Virus record (IMG/VR): IMGVR_UViG_3300006143_000028
Strand: one strand, 5' to 3'
DNA from: a virus
DNA: 45,464 nt
The notes beneath the pieces were generated by a model. The model saw nothing but the letters and a program-made list of their open reading frames with translations, did not search any database and was not told the origin of the DNA. Positions 17,333 to 45,464 of this stretch are shown here, piece by piece (within the stretch, counting starts at the first letter, position 1; the number at the start of each line of letters is the position of its first letter). The position numbers and the translations under genes are program-made.

Positions 17333-19321
17333 TCAGTCTTTTCTAAAGAATTGCCCCACCCAGCCGTCTGCGTTGAGGGGCAGGTCCGGGGCCCAGGAGA
17401 TAGGCCGCCGCATAATGTCCACCACCGTCTGGAGCATGGTGGCCTCATCTGTCCAGGGAGCCACATCAATGACCACCTCATCATGAACGTGGAACACCAC
17501 CGGCAGACCGGCGGCCTCCAGGCGCTCAATGGCATCCGCCAGACAGTCACGGGCAATGGCTTGGACACAGTTCTCCACCAGCTTGCCGCCATAGGTTTCA
17601 ATGCGTTTCCAGCGCTTGGTCTTTTGGTCCATGCCCATATAGGAGATGGAGGGCTTGCCCCATTCATTTTCACCGATGCCGGGGCTGGTATAGTAGAGCT
17701 TGCGCCCGGAGGGGAGGGTGATGCTCATGCAGTCTGTTCCCCAGTTGTAGTCATACTCATGGGACAGGATGAGCCCGTTGAGGCCAACGGAGCCGCCCTG
17801 GGTGATAACCTGCACGGCGGCGTTGTCCATGGAATACCACAGGTCACGGATGCGCTTGTTGGCCTCCCGCCAGCGGCCCACGATGTCCGGCAGGTCCTCC
17901 TCCGGGATGCCCATATCCAAGGCCCCCATGTTGATGAGTGCCCCGGTGCTGCCCTGATACCCCAGGGCCAGCTCCGCCACCTTGCCTTTTTGCCGCAGGG
18001 AATACTCAGGGTTTCCCTTTTTGATGCGCTCAAGAGGGACGCCAAACATTTGGGAGGCGCTGGCCTCATAGATTTTGCCGTGGGTGCGGAACACCTCCAG
18101 CCGCCATTGCTCACCGGCCAGCCAGGAGATGACACGGGCCTCAATAGCTGAAAAATCGGCGTCAATGAGGACGTGCCCCTCCGGGGCAACAAAAGCGGTG
18201 CGGATGAGCTGGCTGAGGGTATCAGGCACGGAGCCATAGACCATTTTGAGGGCCTTGAGGTTGCGCTGTCGTACAAGGTCACGGGCAAGGGCAAGGGGCT
18301 CTGTATAAGTGCGGGGGAGGTTTTGGACCTGCACAAGCCGCCCGGCCCAGCGCCCCGTGCGGTTGGCTCCATAGAATTGGAGCAGCCCACGGACCCGTCT
18401 GTCCGGGCACACGGCGGCCTCTATGGCGTCATATTTCTTGGTGGAGGTCTTGCCCAGCTCTTGGCGGATTTCAAGCATACGTTGGACCTGGGGGCTGTTG
18501 CTGTCCTGTTTCAGCAGCCGGGTCACCGTGTCCTTGCGCAAGTTCCCCAGCTCCTCCCCGGTTTCCTCCTGGAGCCAAGTGGTGAGCTGGGCCACGCTGT
18601 TGGGATTGTTCAGCCCGGAGATTTGCATGGCCTCCGATATGAGAGACTGGCGCACAGTGTCCCCCAGGTAGAGGGCCCCGGCTACCATCTCCATATCCAC
18701 CGCCACGCCACGGGCATTGATGATTAGGTCCGTTTCCCATTGCTTTTGCACCCAGTCAGGGACGGGGTAAGAGGCCAGCCGCCGGTCAATCTCCATTTCT
18801 GTGACCACATCCTGGCGGTTGTACTCTTTGAAAAGCTCCCATTTGGCGGGGTCGTGCTGGGGCAGGTTGCGGGTGCGGCCACCGTTGGCCTTTGAGGGGG
18901 CGCAGGGCGTACAGAAATAGCGGATGAGGGCTTTGCCGGTGTTCAGCTTGCGCTTGTCCTCCGGCAGCCCCAGAGCCCGCCCAGTGGCCTCCAGGCCCGC
19001 CGTATAGCCGCAATAAAGGCCGTGGAACATGGAGCACCGCCATTGGTCAGGCGGCAGCCAGCCCAGGAATTTGGACAAGCAGCCCCACTCAAAGGGGGCG
19101 TTGTAGGCGTGCTTGATAAACTCCGGGCTGGTGATGGCCTGGACCAGCCACGGGGGCAGATGCGCCCCCGTGGTCAGGTCTATCACCTCAACAGGTGCAC
19201 CATCCAGGCTGTACGCAAACAGCAGGATTTCAAAGTCCGGGCTGGATATGTACTTTTGAGCCCCGGCCTTTTTAATCGGGACGCTGGAAAAGGTTTCAAG
19301 GTCAATGCTCAGATGGTGCAT
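17333..19321 (-). CDS. Family A DNA polymerase with N-terminal 3'-5' exonuclease domain
   Basis: 662 aa. It has an Exo I-type IDLETFS, the PolA motifs DFSAIEARV and RQKGKVAELALGYQG, and VHDEVV. Confidence 0.9.
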   Translation of the reverse strand: MHHLSIDLETFSSVPIKKAGAQKYISSPDFEILLFAYSLDGAPVEVIDLTTGAHLPPWLVQAITSPEFIKHAYNAPFEWGCLSKFLGWLPPDQWRCSMFHGLYCGYTAGLEATGRALGLPEDKRKLNTGKALIRYFCTPCAPSKANGGRTRNLPQHDPAKWELFKEYNRQDVVTEMEIDRRLASYPVPDWVQKQWETDLIINARGVAVDMEMVAGALYLGDTVRQSLISEAMQISGLNNPNSVAQLTTWLQEETGEELGNLRKDTVTRLLKQDSNSPQVQRMLEIRQELGKTSTKKYDAIEAAVCPDRRVRGLLQFYGANRTGRWAGRLVQVQNLPRTYTEPLALARDLVRQRNLKALKMVYGSVPDTLSQLIRTAFVAPEGHVLIDADFSAIEARVISWLAGEQWRLEVFRTHGKIYEASASQMFGVPLERIKKGNPEYSLRQKGKVAELALGYQGSTGALINMGALDMGIPEEDLPDIVGRWREANKRIRDLWYSMDNAAVQVITQGGSVGLNGLILSHEYDYNWGTDCMSITLPSGRKLYYTSPGIGENEWGKPSISYMGMDQKTKRWKRIETYGGKLVENCVQAIARDCLADAIERLEAAGLPVVFHVHDEVVIDVAPWTDEATMLQTVVDIMRRPISWAPDLPLNADGWVGQFFRKD

Positions 19322-19333
19322 GATATCCTCCTG

Positions 19334-20065
19334 TTACATGGGCTGGCCGGTGATGGGATTGACGCCGCTGGCGGTGCTCCAGGGCGGCGTGGCAGCGGCA
19401 GGGCCGGGAGCGGGGGGCTGGTAAGCCGGGGCCGCAGGGGCGGCGGGGTTGACGCCGTAGGCCGGAGCCGTGGGAGCAGTAGGGTTGACGCCATAGGCCG
19501 GAGCCGCAGGGGCGGCACCCACACCGGCAAAGTCCACGGAGGCGGAGGCACCGCCAGCCAGGGCCTCACCGTCACGGGTTTTCATGACATTGCCCAGGCC
19601 GCAGCCGATGCCCTTATTGCCGCTGTTGGAGTAGCCGAAAAAGCGGATGGTGACACGGGCATACATCCCGCTGTAAATGTCAGCGGGGGACAGCTCACAG
19701 TTGATGTTGTCGATGCCCACCACCTGGGGCTTGTTCTTGGTGGAGGCGGTCATGACCCAGTGACCCTTGCACTCATCGCCAAAGGGCACCCCGGACTTGC
19801 GCACGCCGTCACCGTCCCAGATGGGCACGGAAAGCTGGGGCGGGCGGGCCCCGTTCCACACCTTGGACAGCGCCTCATTGGCGGCGGCCTGGATGGCGGC
19901 GTCAATGTCCGCCTTGGTGGCCACGTCTGTCTTGGGGATGAGCAGGGTGACGCTGTACTTGGGCTCCCCGCCCTGCTGGGCGGCCCTGGGGGTGGTCAGG
20001 TTGCAGTAGGACAGGCGGACCTCGCCGGTCAGCACTTTCATGGGGTCGTTCTGATACATAGTCAA
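19334..20065 (-). CDS. ssDNA-binding protein (DUF2815-like) with a Pro/Ala-rich repetitive tail
   Basis: N-terminus VLTGEVRLSYCNL...PKYSVTLLIPK. It occupies the conserved position between the DUF2800-like nuclease and the DNA polymerase. The C-terminus has a 12-aa repeat, YGVNPxAPxAPA. Confidence 0.6.
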   Translation of the reverse strand: MTMYQNDPMKVLTGEVRLSYCNLTTPRAAQQGGEPKYSVTLLIPKTDVATKADIDAAIQAAANEALSKVWNGARPPQLSVPIWDGDGVRKSGVPFGDECKGHWVMTASTKNKPQVVGIDNINCELSPADIYSGMYARVTIRFFGYSNSGNKGIGCGLGNVMKTRDGEALAGGASASVDFAGVGAAPAAPAYGVNPTAPTAPAYGVNPAAPAAPAYQPPAPGPAAATPPWSTASGVNPITGQPM

Positions 20066-22367: not shown

Positions 22368-23033
22368 TCAGTCCTCCAAAATGCTTGTCCAATGTTCAAG
22401 GGCGGTCATGACCTTGCGGGTGTAGTCCGTTTGATAGACGCCAGCATCCCAGAGCTTTCTTGCGCCGGTGGGGCCGTTGTTATAGGCCATCAGGGCTTGC
22501 TCTGTGTCCCCGTAGCGCTCAAGATAACCGCCGATGATGTAGACACCGGCCTCAATGTTTCCGGCATAGGTCAACGGGTCCATGCCAAGGCCCTGGAGCC
22601 ATTCGTGGTTTACTTGGTTTATCTGCATGAGGCCATAATCATGGGTGGGGCTCACGGCGTCCGGGTCAAAGTGGGTTTCCACCTCAGCGATGGCCAGCGC
22701 CAGGGCATAGGGCACGCCGTAGGTCTCACACTGGTCCTGCATGAGCTCCTGGAGGTCATAGGCCAGGAGCCGCCCGTCACTCACGATGTCATCCCGATGC
22801 CTCACCGGCTCCGGCGTTTCAGCCGGAGCGGTGGAGGCGCTGGTGGGCTCCTGGGACGGGGTGACCGTGGCCACCGGGGGCTTGTCCTCCAGCAGAGCGT
22901 CAAAAATAAAGTTTAAGGTGAGGGCGGAGACTGTGAGGCCCAGCGCAATGGCCAGCACGATGGAGGCAAGGACCAGCGCCACGGGCCGGAGGTCACGCTT
23001 GGCCAGGCGGCGGGGACGGTAGGCGGCCATCAT
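22368..23033 (-). CDS. Membrane-anchored lytic transglycosylase (SLT domain)
   Basis: N-terminal TM segment VALVLASIVLAIALGLTVSAL. SLT motifs AIAEVETHF, GLMQIN and AYNNG. Confidence 0.8.
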   Translation of the reverse strand: MMAAYRPRRLAKRDLRPVALVLASIVLAIALGLTVSALTLNFIFDALLEDKPPVATVTPSQEPTSASTAPAETPEPVRHRDDIVSDGRLLAYDLQELMQDQCETYGVPYALALAIAEVETHFDPDAVSPTHDYGLMQINQVNHEWLQGLGMDPLTYAGNIEAGVYIIGGYLERYGDTEQALMAYNNGPTGARKLWDAGVYQTDYTRKVMTALEHWTSILED

Positions 23034-23854
23034 GTATTCATCCGGCGGTTGACCTCCGCCACCAGCTCATTGGTGCTGTACTGCTCCAGCGGGTTGCTGT
23101 CATCCTCCACCGTGTAATCGGAGGGAATGAGGAAAGCGGGGCGGGACCCGCGGGTGCGGGAGCAGTTGCCGCTGCTGAGGTCGCCACTGGAGTTCAAGCC
23201 AAGGACCCACGTATGGTCATCATCCACGCAGGGCGTGGACCAGGGCGTCACGGACCACTCAAAGGCCTCCTCATCATTCGGGTTGGGCAGGATGCCGTGG
23301 TACTTGCGCAGCTCATCCAGGGTGAGCGGGGCCACCTTGCACTCCACCGTCCCGTACTCCTTGGAGCCGTTGAGGGCGGTGAGGTCCACCGTGCGGGTGA
23401 TGACCTCATCCGGGTGGCCTTGGGTCAAGCCGTCCAAGTAGACGCCGTTGAGGTGGGAGCGGAGGGAGCTGGCGGCAAAGTTGTTGGTATCGCCAAACGC
23501 CCGCTTGACCCACTCCGTGTCCATGAGCAGGGTGCCGTCCTTGCGGTGCTCCAGAACAATGCAGAGCTCCCCACGGTAGGAGATGACCTTGCCGGGGGCG
23601 ATAGCGGAAACAGGGGTTTTCATGTACTTGTCCTCCTTGTAGATGTAAATGGCGGGGCGGGCCTCCCGCTCCACGGTTTTGTTGTTCTCATAGACGGGGC
23701 CGGTGCCGGTCCACTCATAGTCACACTCCGGGCCGATGAGGACGCCGCACAGCTTATGCGTGGCCTCATCATTGGTGGGAGCCCAGACGTGAACGTCCAG
23801 CCGGGTCCCGGTGGCTTTGTGGCGCAGGCCAACGCTCCATTTGTACTCTTTCAT
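23030..23854 (-). CDS. DGR target protein 2 (paralog of the ligand-binding domain of target 1; carries VR2)
   Basis: 274 aa. It shares the ...NxxxxSxLRxxLNG... and ...C-S-x-T-x-GSRPAF architecture with ORF 29768..31585. Its 3' region holds a 64-bp match to the TR. Confidence 0.7.
   Translation of the reverse strand: MKEYKWSVGLRHKATGTRLDVHVWAPTNDEATHKLCGVLIGPECDYEWTGTGPVYENNKTVEREARPAIYIYKEDKYMKTPVSAIAPGKVISYRGELCIVLEHRKDGTLLMDTEWVKRAFGDTNNFAASSLRSHLNGVYLDGLTQGHPDEVITRTVDLTALNGSKEYGTVECKVAPLTLDELRKYHGILPNPNDEEAFEWSVTPWSTPCVDDDHTWVLGLNSSGDLSSGNCSRTRGSRPAFLIPSDYTVEDDSNPLEQYSTNELVAEVNRRMNT
23135..23198 (-). repeat. DGR variable region VR2
   Basis: 64 bp align without gaps to TR 32834-32897. All 10 mismatches fall at TR adenines on the coding strand. 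It has the same GC-rich 3' end, GGGTCCCGCCCCGCT. Confidence 0.75.
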
Positions 23855-24594: not shown

Positions 24595-25635
24595 TTACGC
24601 CGCCTGGAGCTCCTGGTCAAAGAGCATGGTGGCGGACTTCCAGCCCAGTATCTTGCGGGGGTAGTTGTTGACCCACCGCTCCGCTGCCATCACCTCCTCC
24701 TTTGTGACCTCATCAAAGTTGGTGCCTTTGGGGAAAAACCGTCTAATCAGCCGGTTCATGTTCTCATTGCTGCCCCGCTCATAGGCGCTGTACGGGTGGC
24801 AGAAAAACACAATAGTCCGCTTGCCCTTGCGCCGGTGGGACATCTCTATGCCCTCGAAGTCTTGAAACTCACAGCCGTTGTCAACGGTGATGCTCTTAAA
24901 AAGTTTATAGAACAGTTTACCAAAGCGCCGCTCCAGGCTATTGATGGCCTTGACCACGCTGGCCGCCGTGTGGTCCTCCACCAGCAGGACAATCCCCATG
25001 CGGGTCCTCCGCTCTGTCAGCACCAGGAGGGCTTGCTTGGAGCCCTTGCACCCCATAACGCTGTCCATCTCCCAGTGCCCAAAACTGCCCCGGCTCTTGA
25101 CCTCCTCCGGGCGCTTTTCGATGCTCTGGCCACGGGGAGCCCTGGCCGCCTCCTTTTTGCTCTTGGCGGCGTAGTGGCGGCGGCCTTTGTCATGCAGGTG
25201 CTCCGGGGTCAGAAAGAGGAACACGTCCCCACGGTAGATGTAATTATAGACCGTATTCTCACAGATTTCCGTGTCAAAATGCTCTCCGTTGTTTCGGATT
25301 TCCGCAAGGGCGGCACCAGGGGCAAAGCCTTGGACCATGATGAGCTCCTCCAGCCGTTGGACCAGGGCGTGGTCATGGCCGATTTTGAGCTCCTTGCCCT
25401 TTTCCTTGAGGAAAGCCTTGTATTTGCGGTGTGCCACGTCCGCACAATAGACCTCAACGTCAATGAGGTCCGTGGTGCGCTGGACGCACAGGCCCCGGCC
25501 TATTTCATAGTAGATAGACCGTTCACACTTGCCCAGGGCCTCCGCAATAGCGGGCTTTGAAAAGCCTTTTCTCAGCATCCGCTCCAGGGTCTGCCGGTCA
25601 TTGAGTGTGAAATGGGTGGCTCCTTTGTGGTTCAT
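24595..25635 (-). CDS. IS30-family DDE transposase
   Basis: 346 aa with an N-terminal HTH. The catalytic region includes GHWEMD, ITVDNGCEF and HPYSAYERGSNENMNRLIRRFFPKGTNF. Confidence 0.9.
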   Translation of the reverse strand: MNHKGATHFTLNDRQTLERMLRKGFSKPAIAEALGKCERSIYYEIGRGLCVQRTTDLIDVEVYCADVAHRKYKAFLKEKGKELKIGHDHALVQRLEELIMVQGFAPGAALAEIRNNGEHFDTEICENTVYNYIYRGDVFLFLTPEHLHDKGRRHYAAKSKKEAARAPRGQSIEKRPEEVKSRGSFGHWEMDSVMGCKGSKQALLVLTERRTRMGIVLLVEDHTAASVVKAINSLERRFGKLFYKLFKSITVDNGCEFQDFEGIEMSHRRKGKRTIVFFCHPYSAYERGSNENMNRLIRRFFPKGTNFDEVTKEEVMAAERWVNNYPRKILGWKSATMLFDQELQAA

Positions 25636-29312: not shown

Positions 29313-29771
29313 TTATTCGGTGACCTCATCCCAGCCATAGACGCCGGGCTCCCAGACGTTGCCGTCCACGGTAGAGGTCCAATGCTTGCCTTTGTGGTTC
29401 ACCTTAGCCCCGGCGCTGTATGCGTCATGGGCCCCCAGGGGTTGGCTCCAGGCGGGCCACTCCTCCGCCGGGTCAGAGGTCACCGCCCAGAGGGAGGCGG
29501 CCTTGTCCGGCTCCCACCCCTCCTGGGACGTGTGCTCCTGGACACAGCGGTAAAGGGTGCCGCCATACCGGCGGAGGTTGCCCACGGCGTAGTTGACGCC
29601 GGGCACCCACTCCGCAAAGAGGGTGGACTGTTCGGCAGCGGTCACGGCGTCAATCTGGCCGTTTTCCGCCAGCACCACAAAGGCGATGGCGGCGGCGTCC
29701 TCCCGCTGCTTGGCGTAGAGCTTGGCCGCATTGATGGCCTTGAGGCTGTTGGCCGTAAATTCTACACTCAT
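29313..29771 (-). CDS. Carbohydrate-binding-like protein (two CBM5/12-style Trp-rich repeats)
   Basis: YRCVQEHTSQEGWEPDKAASLW and HWTSTVDGNVWEPGVYGW resemble CBM5/12 repeats. It follows the fibre-like gene. Confidence 0.45.
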   Translation of the reverse strand: MSVEFTANSLKAINAAKLYAKQREDAAAIAFVVLAENGQIDAVTAAEQSTLFAEWVPGVNYAVGNLRRYGGTLYRCVQEHTSQEGWEPDKAASLWAVTSDPAEEWPAWSQPLGAHDAYSAGAKVNHKGKHWTSTVDGNVWEPGVYGWDEVTE

Positions 29772-31585
29772 TCAAAAGCACCTCCGATGCTGGAAATATA
29801 GCCGCCGGTGTCGCTGTTGCCCCGGCTCACATTGAGCTGGAAGTTGAAAGCAAAGCCGTTGGCGGCGGTCTTATTGGTAAAGACGTGATTGGCTCCGCTC
29901 TTGATGTCCGCAGTGGCGTCCTCCCACACAGGGGTGGTGTCCTTGGCGTTGTTGGTGACCAGCACCTGGAGCACGGCGTCAACGGGCAAAGCGCCCACAA
30001 TGTTGAGCACCATGACGGTGATGGCGTCATCCGCCTCCAGGGGCTCCGCCAGAGTGATGCTGGCGCTGGTGACCTTTTTGGCGAAAGTCACGGTATAGGG
30101 GGCGCTGTCCGCCTTGCCGTCATTGGCCACCACCTTGAGGGTGTGGGCCCCGTTGAGGATTTTCTGATAGTTGGCGGCGGTGACGGCCTGGAACGTGTTG
30201 GACTGGCCCAGGGTGGCCGTATAGGACCGCTGGAGCACGTTGTCCAGATACTCCTTGACCGTCACGGTGTCCCCGTCCGCATCGGTCACCTTGTAGGTCA
30301 GGGCAAAGCCCTCATTTTTGGTGCCCAGGTCCGTGCCGGAGGCCGTGTCACTGGTGATGACGGGATAGGCGTTATTGTCCACCGTGCGGGTGTCGCTGGT
30401 GACATAGGCGCTGGTGGCGTTCAGCGTGTCATAGGCCCGGACACGGTAGGCCACCGTATTCCACCCGGCGGTGATGGTGTCCGTAAAGGTCAGGGCGGAG
30501 CCCTTGTAGACCTGGGACCATGCGCCGCCGTTGACGCTCCGCTCCAGCTCATAGCCGCTGAGGTTGTCATCGCTGTCCGTGGCACGGGTCCAGGAGATGG
30601 GCAGGGTGGCCCCGCCCCGGACGGCGGCGGGCACCGTGATGGAGCCGGGGGCGGAGGGGGCCCGGTTGTTGACCACCGTGACATTGCTGCCGGTTTTCCA
30701 GCCGGAGTTAAGGCCCTCTGTGTCATAGGCCTTGACCCGGAACATGACGGAGGCGGTGCCAAAGGCCACGTTGTTGGTGGTGCTCCGGGCGCTGCCCTGA
30801 TAAATTTGGGTCCAGGAGCTGCCGCCGTTGGTGCTCCGCTCCACGATATAGCCCGCAAGGTTGCCCTCGGCGTCCGTGGACGCTCCCCAGCTCACAGTGA
30901 TGTCCGTGCCGCCGTTGATGCTGGTGGGATAGGTAATGCTGGAGGGGACGCCAGGGGCGGTGTTGACGGACACAGAGCCATCATCGCTGACATAGAGGGA
31001 GGAGGGGAGAGTGAAAGCGGGGCGGGACCCGCTGGTGTAGGAGCAGCCGTTGTAGTCGAAGTAGCCACCGGAGCTCAAGCACCAGGCGCCGTTGGTGTTG
31101 TCCGTGTTCGGGGAACGGGTCCACTGGACCACGGCGGAGCCATTCAGCTTTGCGATTTTCAGCAGATTGAGGACCGTGCTGGACAGCGCCGTGCCCTCAG
31201 CGTTCATGTAGGTGTAGGAATAGCCCAGCTCCGTGGCGGACAGCAGGAACACGGACCGCTGCAAGGTGGTCTTGCTGTTGTTCCCGTTGCCGGGAGTGTA
31301 GTAGATTTTGGTGGTGCCCATCGCCGTGCGGATGTTGGCGTCCAGCAGGTTCTTGTAGGTGCCGTTGAGCCAGGTGTCAATGGCGCTGCTGGCGTAGGCG
31401 TTGATGTTGGAGCTGTGCCACTGGCGCTGGTCATAACAGTCCTTGCGGACCACCAGCACCCGCCCGGCTCCGTTCAGCCCGCTTTCATAGTTCTGCTTGG
31501 CAATGTAAAACTCCACCAGCACGCCGTTTTCCTTGAGCTTGATGATGGAGCCCTCTGCCTTGCTGCCAAGGGTGACAGTTGCCAT
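29768..31585 (-). CDS. DGR target protein 1: fibre/receptor-binding-like protein with an N-terminal VR-bearing domain followed by FN3 and Ig-like repeats
   Basis: The ATG at 31585 is preceded by AAAGGAGG and overlaps the RT stop (TAATG). VR1 encodes roughly aa 158-190. FN3-like repeats are present (ITVSWGASTDAEGNLAGYIVERSTNGGSSW; LPISWTRATDSDDNLSGYELERSVNGGAW). Confidence 0.8.
   Translation of the reverse strand: MATVTLGSKAEGSIIKLKENGVLVEFYIAKQNYESGLNGAGRVLVVRKDCYDQRQWHSSNINAYASSAIDTWLNGTYKNLLDANIRTAMGTTKIYYTPGNGNNSKTTLQRSVFLLSATELGYSYTYMNAEGTALSSTVLNLLKIAKLNGSAVVQWTRSPNTDNTNGAWCLSSGGYFDYNGCSYTSGSRPAFTLPSSLYVSDDGSVSVNTAPGVPSSITYPTSINGGTDITVSWGASTDAEGNLAGYIVERSTNGGSSWTQIYQGSARSTTNNVAFGTASVMFRVKAYDTEGLNSGWKTGSNVTVVNNRAPSAPGSITVPAAVRGGATLPISWTRATDSDDNLSGYELERSVNGGAWSQVYKGSALTFTDTITAGWNTVAYRVRAYDTLNATSAYVTSDTRTVDNNAYPVITSDTASGTDLGTKNEGFALTYKVTDADGDTVTVKEYLDNVLQRSYTATLGQSNTFQAVTAANYQKILNGAHTLKVVANDGKADSAPYTVTFAKKVTSASITLAEPLEADDAITVMVLNIVGALPVDAVLQVLVTNNAKDTTPVWEDATADIKSGANHVFTNKTAANGFAFNFQLNVSRGNSDTGGYISSIGGAFE
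31016..31115 (-). repeat. DGR variable region VR1
   Basis: 100 bp align without gaps to TR 32834-32933 with 15 mismatches. Fourteen fall at TR adenines on the coding strand; one is a C-to-T change (TR 32878). Confidence 0.85.
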
Positions 31586-32610
31586 TAGATGACCTCCTTT
31601 AGAATGTTTTGCACACGGTCCCGCACTTGCTGGCGCAGGAGCCAGGTGTTGCCGTGAGAGGCGTGGGCGTCCCACGCCTGCCAAGATTGCAGGATTTGCT
31701 CACGGGTGACCTGCCCCGTGGGGTATTCCCGCTCCCACCTATGGAGCTTGGAGCGCATCCGTTTGACGCTGCTGTGCCGCAGCTTGCGGATGACCTTGCC
31801 GCTGTCCGTGAGGTAGGTGTGAAAGCCCAAAAAGTCAATCCCGTTGCGGAGCGGGAAAATCTGGGTTTTCTCGTTGAGCTCCAGGCCCAGGCTGGCCATA
31901 TACGCTTTGATTTCCCGGAGGCAAAACTGCAAATATTCCTTGTCCGGGCAGATGAGGAAAAAGTCATCCATGTAACGGCCATACCAGCGGATGTGGAGCA
32001 CTTCCTTGACGAAGTGGTCAAAATCATCCAGGAATAGCAGGGCAAAGAGCTGGCTTGTCTGATAGCCCAGGGGCAAGCCGTCTGAGCAGTCGATGTAAGT
32101 ACAGAGCAGGTCATAAACAATAGGCTCAAGGTCCAGCTTTTTCAGCTTTTCCTTGAGCCTGTCGTGGTCTATACTTGCAAAGAATTTGCGCACATCACAC
32201 TTGAGGACCCAGCCCTTCGCCGTGTGGTATTTGTTCCAGTATTCAGTGAAAAAGCCTTTGAGGCGGTCCAGGCCGAAGTGGAGGCCTTTGCCCTTTTGGG
32301 ATGCGTAGTTATCTAAAATAAAGCTGTGCGTGATGCGGTCATAGAGCAGGTTGTCCACAAGGGCGTGTTGGACCACCTTGTCCACAAATGCCGGAGCCTG
32401 CACCAGTCTTTTCTTGGGCTCAAACACATAGAACACACGGAAACGCCCCGGCCTATATACTTTCGTGCGGAGGATATAGACAAGGTTGATGATGTTCTCC
32501 AGCAGGTGGGCCTCATAGTGGGCGGTGGCCGCTCTGGAGCGCTTGCCCCTCCGTGCGGCCAGATAAGCGACATAGAGCACCGCAAAGGTGCAGATGTCGG
32601 AAAAACTCAT
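31585..32610 (-). CDS. DGR-type reverse transcriptase
   Basis: Motifs FASIDHDRL, LPLGYQTSQLFA ([I/L]GxxxSQ) and RYMDDFFLI (YxDD). The ATG at 32610 is preceded by CAGGAGG. The longer ORF-track N-terminus is Arg/Pro-rich and unlikely to be translated. Confidence 0.9.
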   Translation of the reverse strand: MSFSDICTFAVLYVAYLAARRGKRSRAATAHYEAHLLENIINLVYILRTKVYRPGRFRVFYVFEPKKRLVQAPAFVDKVVQHALVDNLLYDRITHSFILDNYASQKGKGLHFGLDRLKGFFTEYWNKYHTAKGWVLKCDVRKFFASIDHDRLKEKLKKLDLEPIVYDLLCTYIDCSDGLPLGYQTSQLFALLFLDDFDHFVKEVLHIRWYGRYMDDFFLICPDKEYLQFCLREIKAYMASLGLELNEKTQIFPLRNGIDFLGFHTYLTDSGKVIRKLRHSSVKRMRSKLHRWEREYPTGQVTREQILQSWQAWDAHASHGNTWLLRQQVRDRVQNILKEVI

Positions 32611-32833
32611 GCGGGTGGCCTCCTGTCTTTGTACGGCTGGCCATCCTCTCCTTATGCGCCGTTTAGGTGCCGGGGTGACAGGACCAGCAGCCCCCGCCCG
32701 TTTCTTGCCGGGCGGGCGGCATCGGCGCAATGTGTTTGCCTTGAAAAGCTCAAGGCTGGATGTGACCTCCTTTGATGTGATGGATGGCGCTGCTTTCGGC
32801 TTTGGGCCTACTCAGTCCGGCCTTGACCATCAG

Positions 32834-32933
32834 AGCGGGGCGGGACCCGTTGGTGTTGGAGCAGTTGTTGTTGTTGAGGTTGCCATTGGAGTTCAAGTAC
32901 CAGGCGTTGTTGGTGTTGTTCGTGTTCGGGGAA
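32834..32933 (-). repeat. DGR template repeat (TR), transcribed as non-coding RNA
   Basis: The adenine-rich copy (13 AAC and 1 AAT codon-equivalents) of the VR sequence. It lies 223 nt upstream of the RT start and 56 nt downstream of the avd-like gene. Confidence 0.85.
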
Positions 32934-32989
32934 AAGCGCAAAAAATAGGTCACACCCAAATATAACAGCCTTTGGCTGGTATATCCGCT

Positions 32990-33538
32990 TTAGGGGCTTT
33001 TGAGGGCCGCCGCAATCTGTTGGGCCATCTGTCCCATCACCGCAAGCTCCTGGGCGGCCTTGGCCTCCCGTAAAGCTGCCGCTCTGTTGCCGTCACTCTT
33101 TCGCCAGTTAAAGGCCTTTTGCCGGACAGGACGGACAAGCTCCGCCCAATAATGGCATTGGTCAGCGGTGATGTACTTTTTCTTAAAGCTGAGGTTGATA
33201 TACTGGAGCATGGTGTCACACTTGACCAGCACCCGGTCCAGGTCTTTCAGCCGCTCCTCATACTCAGTTTCAAAGAAACGGCCATCTGCGGAGATGCACA
33301 GTTCCAAAATGTCATTGGCGCAGTTGGCCAGCCGGTCACACAGCCGGAAAGTCTGGCTCTTGGGGAAATGGGGCTTGCCGTCATCCTTGAGCTTTTCGTA
33401 AAGCACCCGCTCCACAAGCTGGCCGTTTTCCATGACATAGCCCTGGACCCTCTTGTATTCCGCCTCCTTGGCCTTGACCCGCTGGTTGGTGTATTCCACC
33501 AGGTCCAGCGCCAGAGGGATGACGTCATAATTTGGCAT
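32990..33538 (-). CDS. avd: Accessory variability determinant (Avd)-like helical-bundle protein
   Basis: It sits directly upstream of the TR. It is basic and predicted helical, with FPKSQTFRLCDRLANCANDILELCISA resembling the Avd / 23S-IVS four-helix-bundle pattern. At 182 aa it is longer than canonical Avd. Confidence 0.5.
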   Translation of the reverse strand: MPNYDVIPLALDLVEYTNQRVKAKEAEYKRVQGYVMENGQLVERVLYEKLKDDGKPHFPKSQTFRLCDRLANCANDILELCISADGRFFETEYEERLKDLDRVLVKCDTMLQYINLSFKKKYITADQCHYWAELVRPVRQKAFNWRKSDGNRAAALREAKAAQELAVMGQMAQQIAAALKSP

Positions 33539-45060: not shown

Positions 45061-45431
45061 TAGGCCCACCCCTCCCACAGCTCAAGCGGCACCTCCTGGT
45101 GGACGGTGTAGACCGCCGGGGTGCCGCTCCGCTCATAGTCACGGGTGACCTTGTTCTGGGTCACGGTGATTTTTGACCCCTCCGGGATGTCCACGGAGGG
45201 GTCAATGTAGAGCGTAACGGATTGGACCACCTTGGCGGCCTCCTCAGAGGGCTCCGTGGCGGTGACAGTCTTGTGGGAGATGCGGCAGGCCGCCCCCTCC
45301 ACAAGCACCCGCTCAACGGGCTCCGTGCGGCCATTGGCCTCATTCAGCACACCCTCCCGCACGGTGACGGTGGCCTTGCCGGTCCAAAGGCTTTGCACGG
45401 CCTTTTTGTAGGCGGTCAGGTTCTTCACCAT
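45060..45431 (-). CDS. Head closure / head-tail adaptor protein (SPP1 gp16-like)
   Basis: 123 aa. Its position after the connector gene (across the circular junction) and its size fit this family. Confidence 0.6.
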   Translation of the reverse strand: MVKNLTAYKKAVQSLWTGKATVTVREGVLNEANGRTEPVERVLVEGAACRISHKTVTATEPSEEAAKVVQSVTLYIDPSVDIPEGSKITVTQNKVTRDYERSGTPAVYTVHQEVPLELWEGWA

Positions 45432-45464
45432 CTCAACCTCCTAAACGCCCCCAGGATTTTCTCC
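45388..45464. repeat. Terminal direct overlap, copy 2 (identical to 1-77)
   Basis: Direct comparison of the two ends. Confidence 0.9.

Follow-up and report, generated by a model that had tools for sequence, protein, structure and literature searches.

A diversity-generating retroelement (DGR) that diversifies two targets, one of them a tentaclin, is not a new kind of element, as the design has already been described in the gut phages nd4 and nd12 and in the Faecalibacterium phage Lelie and prophage CP11. Tentaclins are described as proteins in which an N-terminal DUF6273 domain bears the variable repeat (VR); between one and four Ig/Fn3-like domains come next, and the Ig-like domain at the C-terminus is conserved. 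Their DUF6273 domain was reported to have a C-type-lectin fold that displays the VR on a beta-hairpin at its surface (Baykov et al. 2023, PMC10743442). We analyzed the 45,464-nucleotide IMG/VR virus record IMGVR_UViG_3300006143_000028, referred to here as the window, in which a DGR had been predicted from the sequence alone at positions 29768 to 33538. Our results make it very probable that this cassette is a functional-looking DGR that diversifies two phage proteins from one template. The original prediction of a DGR is thus supported, although it was incomplete, having missed a remote second target and a structured RNA in the spacer between the template repeat (TR) and the reverse transcriptase (RT) gene.

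Repeats, cassette genes and two targets

The cassette contains the components of a DGR in the order avd-TR-RT-target. Its features and those of the remote target are as follows.

32834-32933, minus strand: TR, 100 nt with 32 adenines; in the VR frame its codons include 13 AAC, 1 AAT, 3 ACN and 1 TAC
31016-31115, minus strand: VR1, amino acids 157-190 of target 1, with 12 residues unlike the TR-encoded sequence
23135-23198, minus strand: VR2, amino acids 219-240 of target 2, with 10 differences, all at TR adenines
32834-32848, minus strand: GC-rich 3' end of the TR, GGGTCCCGCCCCGCT, resembling IMH* (IMH, initiation of mutagenic homing); the same in VR1 (31016-31030) and VR2 (23135-23149)
31585-32610, minus strand: predicted DGR RT, 341 aa; Pfam RVT_1 at 3e-19, PHROG 1423 at 5e-119
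32990-33538, minus strand: avd-like accessory gene, 182 aa; predicted four-helix bundle that carries a beta-hairpin insert (aa 28-49)
29768-31585, minus strand: target gene 1, assigned to the tentaclins, 605 aa; N-terminal DUF6273, Fn3/Ig-like domains and conserved C-terminal domain
23030-23854, minus strand: target gene 2, 274 aa, located 9.7 kb away from the TR; DUF6273-like domain in its C-terminal part

The TR and VR1 form an ungapped 100-nt pair with 15 mismatches, 14 of which are adenines in the TR. Changes fall on 14 of the 32 TR adenine sites and on 1 of the 67 non-adenine sites (Fisher p = 1.5e-7). A whole-window repeat search revealed a third copy of the TR at 23135-23234, whose alignable part is the last 64 nt (23135-23198 against TR 32834-32897). 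Here, 10 of 19 TR adenine sites are changed and none of 45 non-adenine sites (Fisher p = 6e-7), and for VR1 and VR2 combined the adenine is present only in the TR copy for 24 of the 25 differences. The TR pattern with its adenines masked matched only the TR and VR copies in the window, with 0 matches expected in shuffles, and this search returned no VR in the window besides VR1 and VR2. Translated in the target frame, the TR reads SPNTNNTNNAWYLNSNGNLNNNNCSNTNGSRPA; substitution of adenines in its codons can never produce a stop, and both VR1 and VR2 are free of frameshifts and stops. The GC-rich segment GGGTCCCGCCCCGCT is identical in all three copies, which diverge directly after it (CTGATGG after the TR, TTCACTC after VR1). 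The 3' flanks differ in a constant manner in all relatives, with TTC... following the VRs and CTG... following the TR. The GC-rich segment is IMH/IMH*-like and would act in homing. Every sequence claim that had been made about the TR/VR1 pair held on rechecking: the 14 adenine differences and the single C/T difference, the in-frame run of 13 AAC codons and 1 AAT codon, and the shared 3' end followed by divergence. The RT reading frame with its DGR motifs, the 223-nt spacer separating the TR from the RT gene, and the TAATG overlap of the RT stop with the start of target 1 were confirmed as well.

The behavior of these repeats was examined in related phages. An RT search retrieved 80 IMG/VR loci, in which the region upstream of each RT was compared with the rest of the locus while permitting mismatches only at TR adenines. 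The same cassette layout was present in nearly every related locus with enough flank. Across 49 in-register TR/VR pairs, 778 of 1548 adenine sites were changed (50%) versus 39 of 2988 non-adenine sites (1.3%), and the 39 non-adenine differences were mostly register errors at the repeat ends. The rate at adenines agrees with the 51.6% misincorporation at template adenines by the BPP-1 RT (bRT) with Avd in vitro (PMC7826257). The changes in the relatives were 66% A-to-G, 27% A-to-T and 7% A-to-C. One identical TR was shared by 12 loci that carried 11 distinct VR1 sequences, and another TR was shared by 9 loci with 9 distinct VR1 sequences; within the 12-locus group, TR-adenine columns accounted for 32 of the 36 variable VR columns. 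The comparison with related genomes, proposed along with the original prediction, thus found an invariant TR and a VR that is hypervariable at TR-adenine positions.

The single non-adenine difference in VR1, previously flagged as deserving attention, does exist, but it belongs to an ordinary class of event. It is a C at TR 32878 against a T at VR1 31060 and changes target residue 176 from Leu (CTC) to Phe (TTC). Because C is also found at the equivalent position of VR2, and in both the TR and VR1 of the closest relatives, the T in VR1 is the derived state. The 49 related pairs contain about 12 genuine non-adenine differences within the repeats, and C-to-T, with 8 of the 12, is the commonest class. 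Sporadic changes of this kind are found in nd4 and nd12 too, where they were ascribed to mutation independent of retrohoming (PMC10743442), and the background non-adenine error of bRT-Avd in vitro is 0.3-1.6% (PMC7826257). The source of the VR1 change is either retrohoming-independent mutation or background RT error, and it is ordinary either way. The C-to-T bias among the relatives might stem from deamination of cytosine or from a particular error of the RT.

The RT contains the motifs FASIDH (aa 144-149), LGYQTSQ (aa 181-187) and an intact YMDD (aa 213-216), the second of which fits the DGR signature [I/V/L]GxxxSQ. Its R68 aligns with R74 of bRT, a residue shown to promote adenine mutagenesis (PMC7826257). 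The best match in the PDB is BPP-1 bRT (8ub7_A, E = 1.5e-30), ahead of Cas6-RT-Cas1 (2e-9) and group II RTs (2e-8). In tblastn searches of GenBank phages, the RT was 88% identical to that of an unannotated human faecal phage, 56% to those of the Faecalibacterium phages Toutatis, Lelie and Brigit, 50% to nd12, 42% to nd4 and 31% to BPP-1; the close named relatives are all phage DGR RTs. On its sequence, the protein is assigned to the DGR class of reverse transcriptases.

The reading frame upstream of the TR matches PHROG 3206, 'Avd protein of DGR', at 9e-22 and is homologous to orf29 of Lelie (E = 4e-12). Searching PDB sequences with the protein and its profile gave no usable match, and Avd was found by fold comparison alone. 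The AlphaFold2 (AF2) model (mean predicted local distance difference test score, pLDDT, 85.5) has a long last helix, and Foldseek aligned it with BPP-1 Avd (4dwl/8ub7) at a template modelling (TM) score of 0.80-0.87 normalized to the target, a root-mean-square deviation of ~2 Å and a probability of at least 0.97. The full 182-aa form is kept in many relatives. Homology and the predicted fold identify this protein as an Avd homologue with an extra beta-hairpin.

Target 1 matches Pfam DUF6273 at aa 41-195 (2e-24) and PHROG 10993 (3e-166), and VR1 lies at the C-terminal end of its DUF6273 domain. The AF2 model (pLDDT 77) places the variable residues on the strands of a beta-hairpin, 166-170 and 176-180, and on the flanking loops. 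The protein is 42% identical to the nd12 tentaclin over 308 aa that span the Fn3 and C-terminal domains (E = 2e-65) and 26% identical in the N-terminal part. Identity with the large Lelie target, orf31, is 48%/42%, with 48% at the C-terminus, where the two proteins have a common ...GGYISSIGGAFE-type end. An internal 59-nt repeat at 30524/30821 corresponds to two Fn3-like units; Pfam called no fn3 domain in target 1. By homology, target 1 is classed as a member of the tentaclin family. At codon 169 of VR1 (31079-31081), TAC (Tyr) in the TR has become TGC (Cys). VR substitutions in tentaclins were reported to tend toward Cys, with a possible disulfide to a nearby Cys outside the hairpin (PMC10743442).

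The C-terminal half of target 2 aligns with the DUF6273 profile of target 1 (hhalign probability 97.4%, E = 9e-12); the protein also matches PHROG 9958 (3e-37) and, below the cut-off, Pfam DUF6273 (0.003). With VR2 located in this remote DUF6273 gene, the element has two targets. A remote second VR is found in at least 8 related loci. The related locus L036 has a full-length second VR (102 nt) at 467-568, ~8.4 kb upstream of the TR and with 17 adenine-site differences, in addition to the usual VR1, an arrangement unlike the short downstream VR2 of the window. Target gene 2 adjoins a gene for an SLT lytic transglycosylase (22368-23033, minus strand), whose start it overlaps by ATGA; the transglycosylase has a hydrophobic N-terminal segment. 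This neighborhood hints that target 2 and the transglycosylase act jointly at the cell wall. Both targets are presumed to be ligand or receptor binders. The only solved DUF6273 homologue, the T. ramosa IgA peptidase, gives no clue to the ligand, as Fab recognition was assigned to the catalytic core of that enzyme.

Structured RNA around the template repeat

The BPP-1 cryo-EM preprint describes a duplex that joins segments up- and downstream of the TR, and reports this 'cPRT Stop' duplex together with post-TR stem-loops in many DGRs (bioRxiv 10.1101/2023.10.23.563531). We searched for such a TR-flanking duplex because of that description. The following elements were identified around the TR of the window.

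32611-32833, minus strand: TR-RT spacer, structured non-coding RNA, 223 nt; Rfam RT-2 match at 32636-32825
32827-32831/32779-32783, 32752-32756/32738-32742 and 32709-32720/32690-32701, minus strand: spacer helices predicted from the alignment of relatives
32947-32958, minus strand: 5' arm of a 12-bp long-range duplex, 13 nt upstream of the TR; partner at 32757-32768
32757-32768, minus strand: 3' arm of the 12-bp duplex, within the most conserved spacer block, CAAAGGAGGTCACATCC

The spacer matches Rfam RF03077 (RT-2) over the full model length with 33 bits (E = 4e-6), the sole Rfam match reported for the window, and at 43.4 bits the homologous spacer of the related locus L056 passes the gathering score of 40. 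In the RNAalifold consensus of 22 spacers, 17 of 31 pairs have compensatory changes. The consensus helices are paired in 92% of the alignment cells versus 33-50% when the arms are slid, with a covariation of 0.45 versus ~0.1, and these independently predicted helices agree with the RT-2 family consensus.

Support for the long-range duplex is strong. Only sequence anchors were used to locate its arms, in 13 distinct lineages; this extraction was used in place of RNAduplex on long flanks, which over-extended. Pairing was found in 99.4% of the cells, 8 of the 12 pairs were compensatory, and the covariation was 0.74 versus 0.05-0.16 in slid controls. A local GGA/UCC hairpin proposed by RNAalifold (A3 columns 101-113) was superseded by this better-supported duplex, which uses the same bases. 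The TR-flanking duplex and spacer helices of the window match the 'cPRT Stop' duplex and post-TR stem-loop pattern.

When the RT motifs were first reported, only RT-10 was tied to a DGR, and a DGR role for the others was speculation (Weinberg et al. 2017, PMC5737381). The location of the RT-2 motif in the TR-RT spacer of this DGR clade is a small addition to what is known. We tentatively propose, as an idea that may well prove wrong, that RT-2 is the priming and Avd-binding spacer RNA of a large clade of Clostridia-phage DGRs and that, with the TR-clamping 12-bp duplex and an Avd made larger by its hairpin, it forms a variant RT-Avd-RNA particle unlike the BPP-1 (RT-10) architecture and suited to two targets, one of them remote.

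Proposed mechanism and rival explanations

By analogy with BPP-1, an RNA spanning avd, the TR and the spacer would be transcribed, the spacer would fold, and the 12-bp duplex would join the segments that flank the TR. The RT and the Avd-like protein would then copy the TR into complementary DNA (cDNA), misincorporating at template adenines. This cDNA would replace VR1, and VR2 over its 3' 64 nt only, with the shared GC-rich 3' end setting the target boundary and homology fixing the 5' junction. The result could be up to ~7e18 variants of the surface beta-hairpin and loops of the N-terminal DUF6273 domain in target 1, and up to ~1.5e11 variants in the C-terminal DUF6273 domain of target 2.

Several observations weigh against a functional DGR. 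None of the 163 loci has the exact TR of the window, the nearest differing at 2 nt. The Avd-like protein scores under the curated cut-offs (NCBIfam DivGenRetAVD 5e-8; Pfam bAvd 0.005), and of the earlier description of it as basic and helical, the helices and the Avd fold stand but it is only mildly basic, with an isoelectric point (pI) of 8.5. The RT-2 match in the window, at 33 bits, is below the Rfam gathering score of 40. For the DUF6273 model, the only significant Foldseek match was another DUF6273 domain, that of the IgA peptidase (9qa6, E = 8e-6), and classical C-type lectins appeared at E = 2-3 only. The C-to-T change in VR1 is an RT error or a mutation after the last homing. Lastly, VR1 and VR2 have no significant downstream hairpin or cruciform, unlike BPP-1; when the 86 nt of DNA comprising the IMH and what follows it were folded, the result was no better than for shuffles (z = -0.9 and -1.3). 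Such a hairpin or cruciform is a BPP-1-type feature that is not universal among DGRs.

Some of these points bear on the possibility that the cassette is a fossil, in which VR1 and VR2 were diversified in the past and, with retrohoming now lost, undergo ordinary mutational drift. The one non-adenine difference in VR1 would fit drift, the 163 loci offer no identical-TR relative that could display ongoing variation, and the DGRs of Lelie, Lagaffe_CP and CP11, when sampled, showed no variation in the reads (PMC11792537). Set against this, all reading frames are intact, including the catalytic YMDD and the fidelity-relevant R68 and L181 of the RT; the TR retains its 32 adenines in AAY-type codons and the RNA structure is intact; VR1 and VR2 lack frameshifts and stops; and non-adenine differences are no commoner in the window than in the relatives, with ~12 internal cases among the 49 pairs. 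We consider a fossil cassette unlikely.

Far less probable is the explanation that the repeats are ordinary paralogous DUF6273 segments, in which case the TR would be what is left of a decayed gene and composition or selection, with no reverse transcription, would account for the adenine bias. The TR does lie within a 69-aa reading frame whose translation matches the DUF6273 C-terminus (7e-5). The differences are directional, however, with adenine in one copy only for 24 of the 25; the TR stays identical in 12 loci that have 11 distinct VR1 sequences, while the non-adenine columns of the VR are conserved; and the TR has an Avd gene on one side and a DGR RT on the other, with a covarying RNA duplex clamping it. 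The population data and the covarying duplex effectively refute this explanation. That the RT belongs to another class (a group II intron maturase, retron or anti-phage defence RT) unrelated to the repeats can be dismissed as hardly credible: the top NCBIfam matches are a group II intron RT (1e-26) and Drt3a (9e-20), but these are uninformative because the library returned no DGR RT model, and their scores are far under the family cut-offs (e.g. 93.6 versus 300 bits), while the PDB comparison gives 1.5e-30 for the DGR bRT versus 2e-8 for group II RTs, the motif is LGxxxSQ and not QGxxxSP (PMC7826257), and the window has no intron RNA domains and no retron msr/msd, RT-2 being the only Rfam match.

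Genomic setting and comparison with known systems

The window begins and ends with the same 77 nt (1-77 and 45388-45464, 100% identical), as found in the repeat search, so the record represents a circular or terminally redundant, complete phage genome of 45,387 bp with an assembly overlap. Genes for sheath, tape measure, baseplate, tail-collar fibre, terminase, portal, DNA polymerase and helicase-primase are present, nearly all genes lie on the minus strand, and the source of the DGR is a complete 45.4-kb myovirus genome. The RT is 95% identical to those in prophages of Acutalibacter caecimuris, Flintibacter muris, Angelakisella and Pseudoflavonifractor genomes, from which the host is probably a gut member of the Oscillospirales.

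The DGR cassette is flanked by a tail-fibre gene on one side and by a CBM5/12 protein and lysis genes on the other. The CBM protein (29313-29771, minus strand; 152 aa) has a CBM_5/12 carbohydrate-binding module (2e-14), and the start of its gene overlaps the stop of the tentaclin gene (ATGA), which suggests co-expression of target 1 with another putative binder of glycans. In the interval from target gene 2 to the lysis module, an open reading frame of 346 aa (24595-25635, minus strand) with HTH_38 and rve domains matches the PHROG 4646 transposase (2e-114) and encodes an IS30-family transposase; it could belong to an inserted insertion sequence or be an integration enzyme of the phage. A scan for promoters and terminators around the cassette gave counts not above shuffles. 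Elsewhere in the window, three tandem 36-nt repeats (19421-19528; 67-78% identity), apparently coding, lie just upstream of the DNA polymerase gene (minus strand). In one related IMG/VR phage contig (L059), two matches to the type II hammerhead ribozyme, 37.9 and 42.5 bits and above the Rfam gathering score, are located ~180 nt apart at 17937-18001 and 18182-18247 (minus strand).

The locus adds a complete, well-delimited example of a two-target tentaclin-type DGR from Oscillospirales phages, and the cultured hosts of close relatives (Acutalibacter caecimuris and Flintibacter muris) could bring experimental tractability. Three side results are of modest general value: the orphan Rfam RT-2 motif gains a probable function, the TR-flanking duplex proposed from BPP-1 cryo-EM gains strong covariation support in a distant DGR clade, and a form of Avd that contains a beta-hairpin insert is defined. 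An interesting question is the ligand of the diversified DUF6273 domains, whether a bacterial receptor, mucus or another gut ligand.

With BPP-1 (mtd-avd-TR-brt) the window shares adenine-specific transfer from TR to VR, with ~50% change at adenine sites, the RT signature motif, the Avd fold and the GC-rich IMH-like 3' end. The difference in gene order from BPP-1 had been recognized correctly in the original prediction, yet avd-TR-RT-target is the usual order among published relatives (nd12 and Lelie). The window further differs from BPP-1 in having two targets, one of them 9.7 kb off, a VR in an N-terminal domain, a DUF6273 target domain in place of the Mtd C-lectin, an RT-2-like spacer in place of RT-10, and an Avd with a beta-hairpin insert and a longer C-terminal helix, and no hairpin was detected 3' of its VRs. 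The Rfam RT-2 family (RF03077; PMC5737381) matches the TR-RT spacer over the full model with agreeing helices; the window remains under the gathering score, which the relative L056 passes.

The Faecalibacterium phage Lelie and prophage CP11 (PMC11792537) have a large and a small DUF6273 target with two VRs, and Lelie shows the same gene order, a 191-aa Avd-like reading frame homologous to that of the window and an RT that is 56% identical, as are the RTs of FP_Toutatis and FP_Brigit (PMC11792537; Cornuault et al. 2018 as cited there). The host of this group is Faecalibacterium, whereas the closest prophages of the window are in Oscillospirales of the Acutalibacter/Flintibacter type, and the Lelie target is 429 aa and lacks the two Fn3-like repeats. 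The design is also that of nd12 and nd4 (OR777946 and OR777945; Baykov et al. 2023, PMC10743442). Here, too, a small myovirus of ~45 kb has one TR that serves two VRs, with the order small reading frame-TR-RT-target 1, an AAC-rich TR and sporadic non-adenine substitutions. Target 1 carries its VR in the 5' part, in an N-terminal DUF6273 domain that precedes Fn3/Ig-like domains, and target 2, of 234-294 aa, has a shorter VR at the 3' end. These phages are distant in sequence (RT identities of 50% and 42%; nd12 tentaclin 42% C-terminally and 26% N-terminally), and the reading frame annotated upstream of the nd12 RT has 81 aa versus 182 aa in the window. Since the two-target design, the 5' VR in a DUF6273-Ig/Fn3 protein, the short VR2 and the non-adenine changes have all been published, the window represents a fairly divergent new example of this design.

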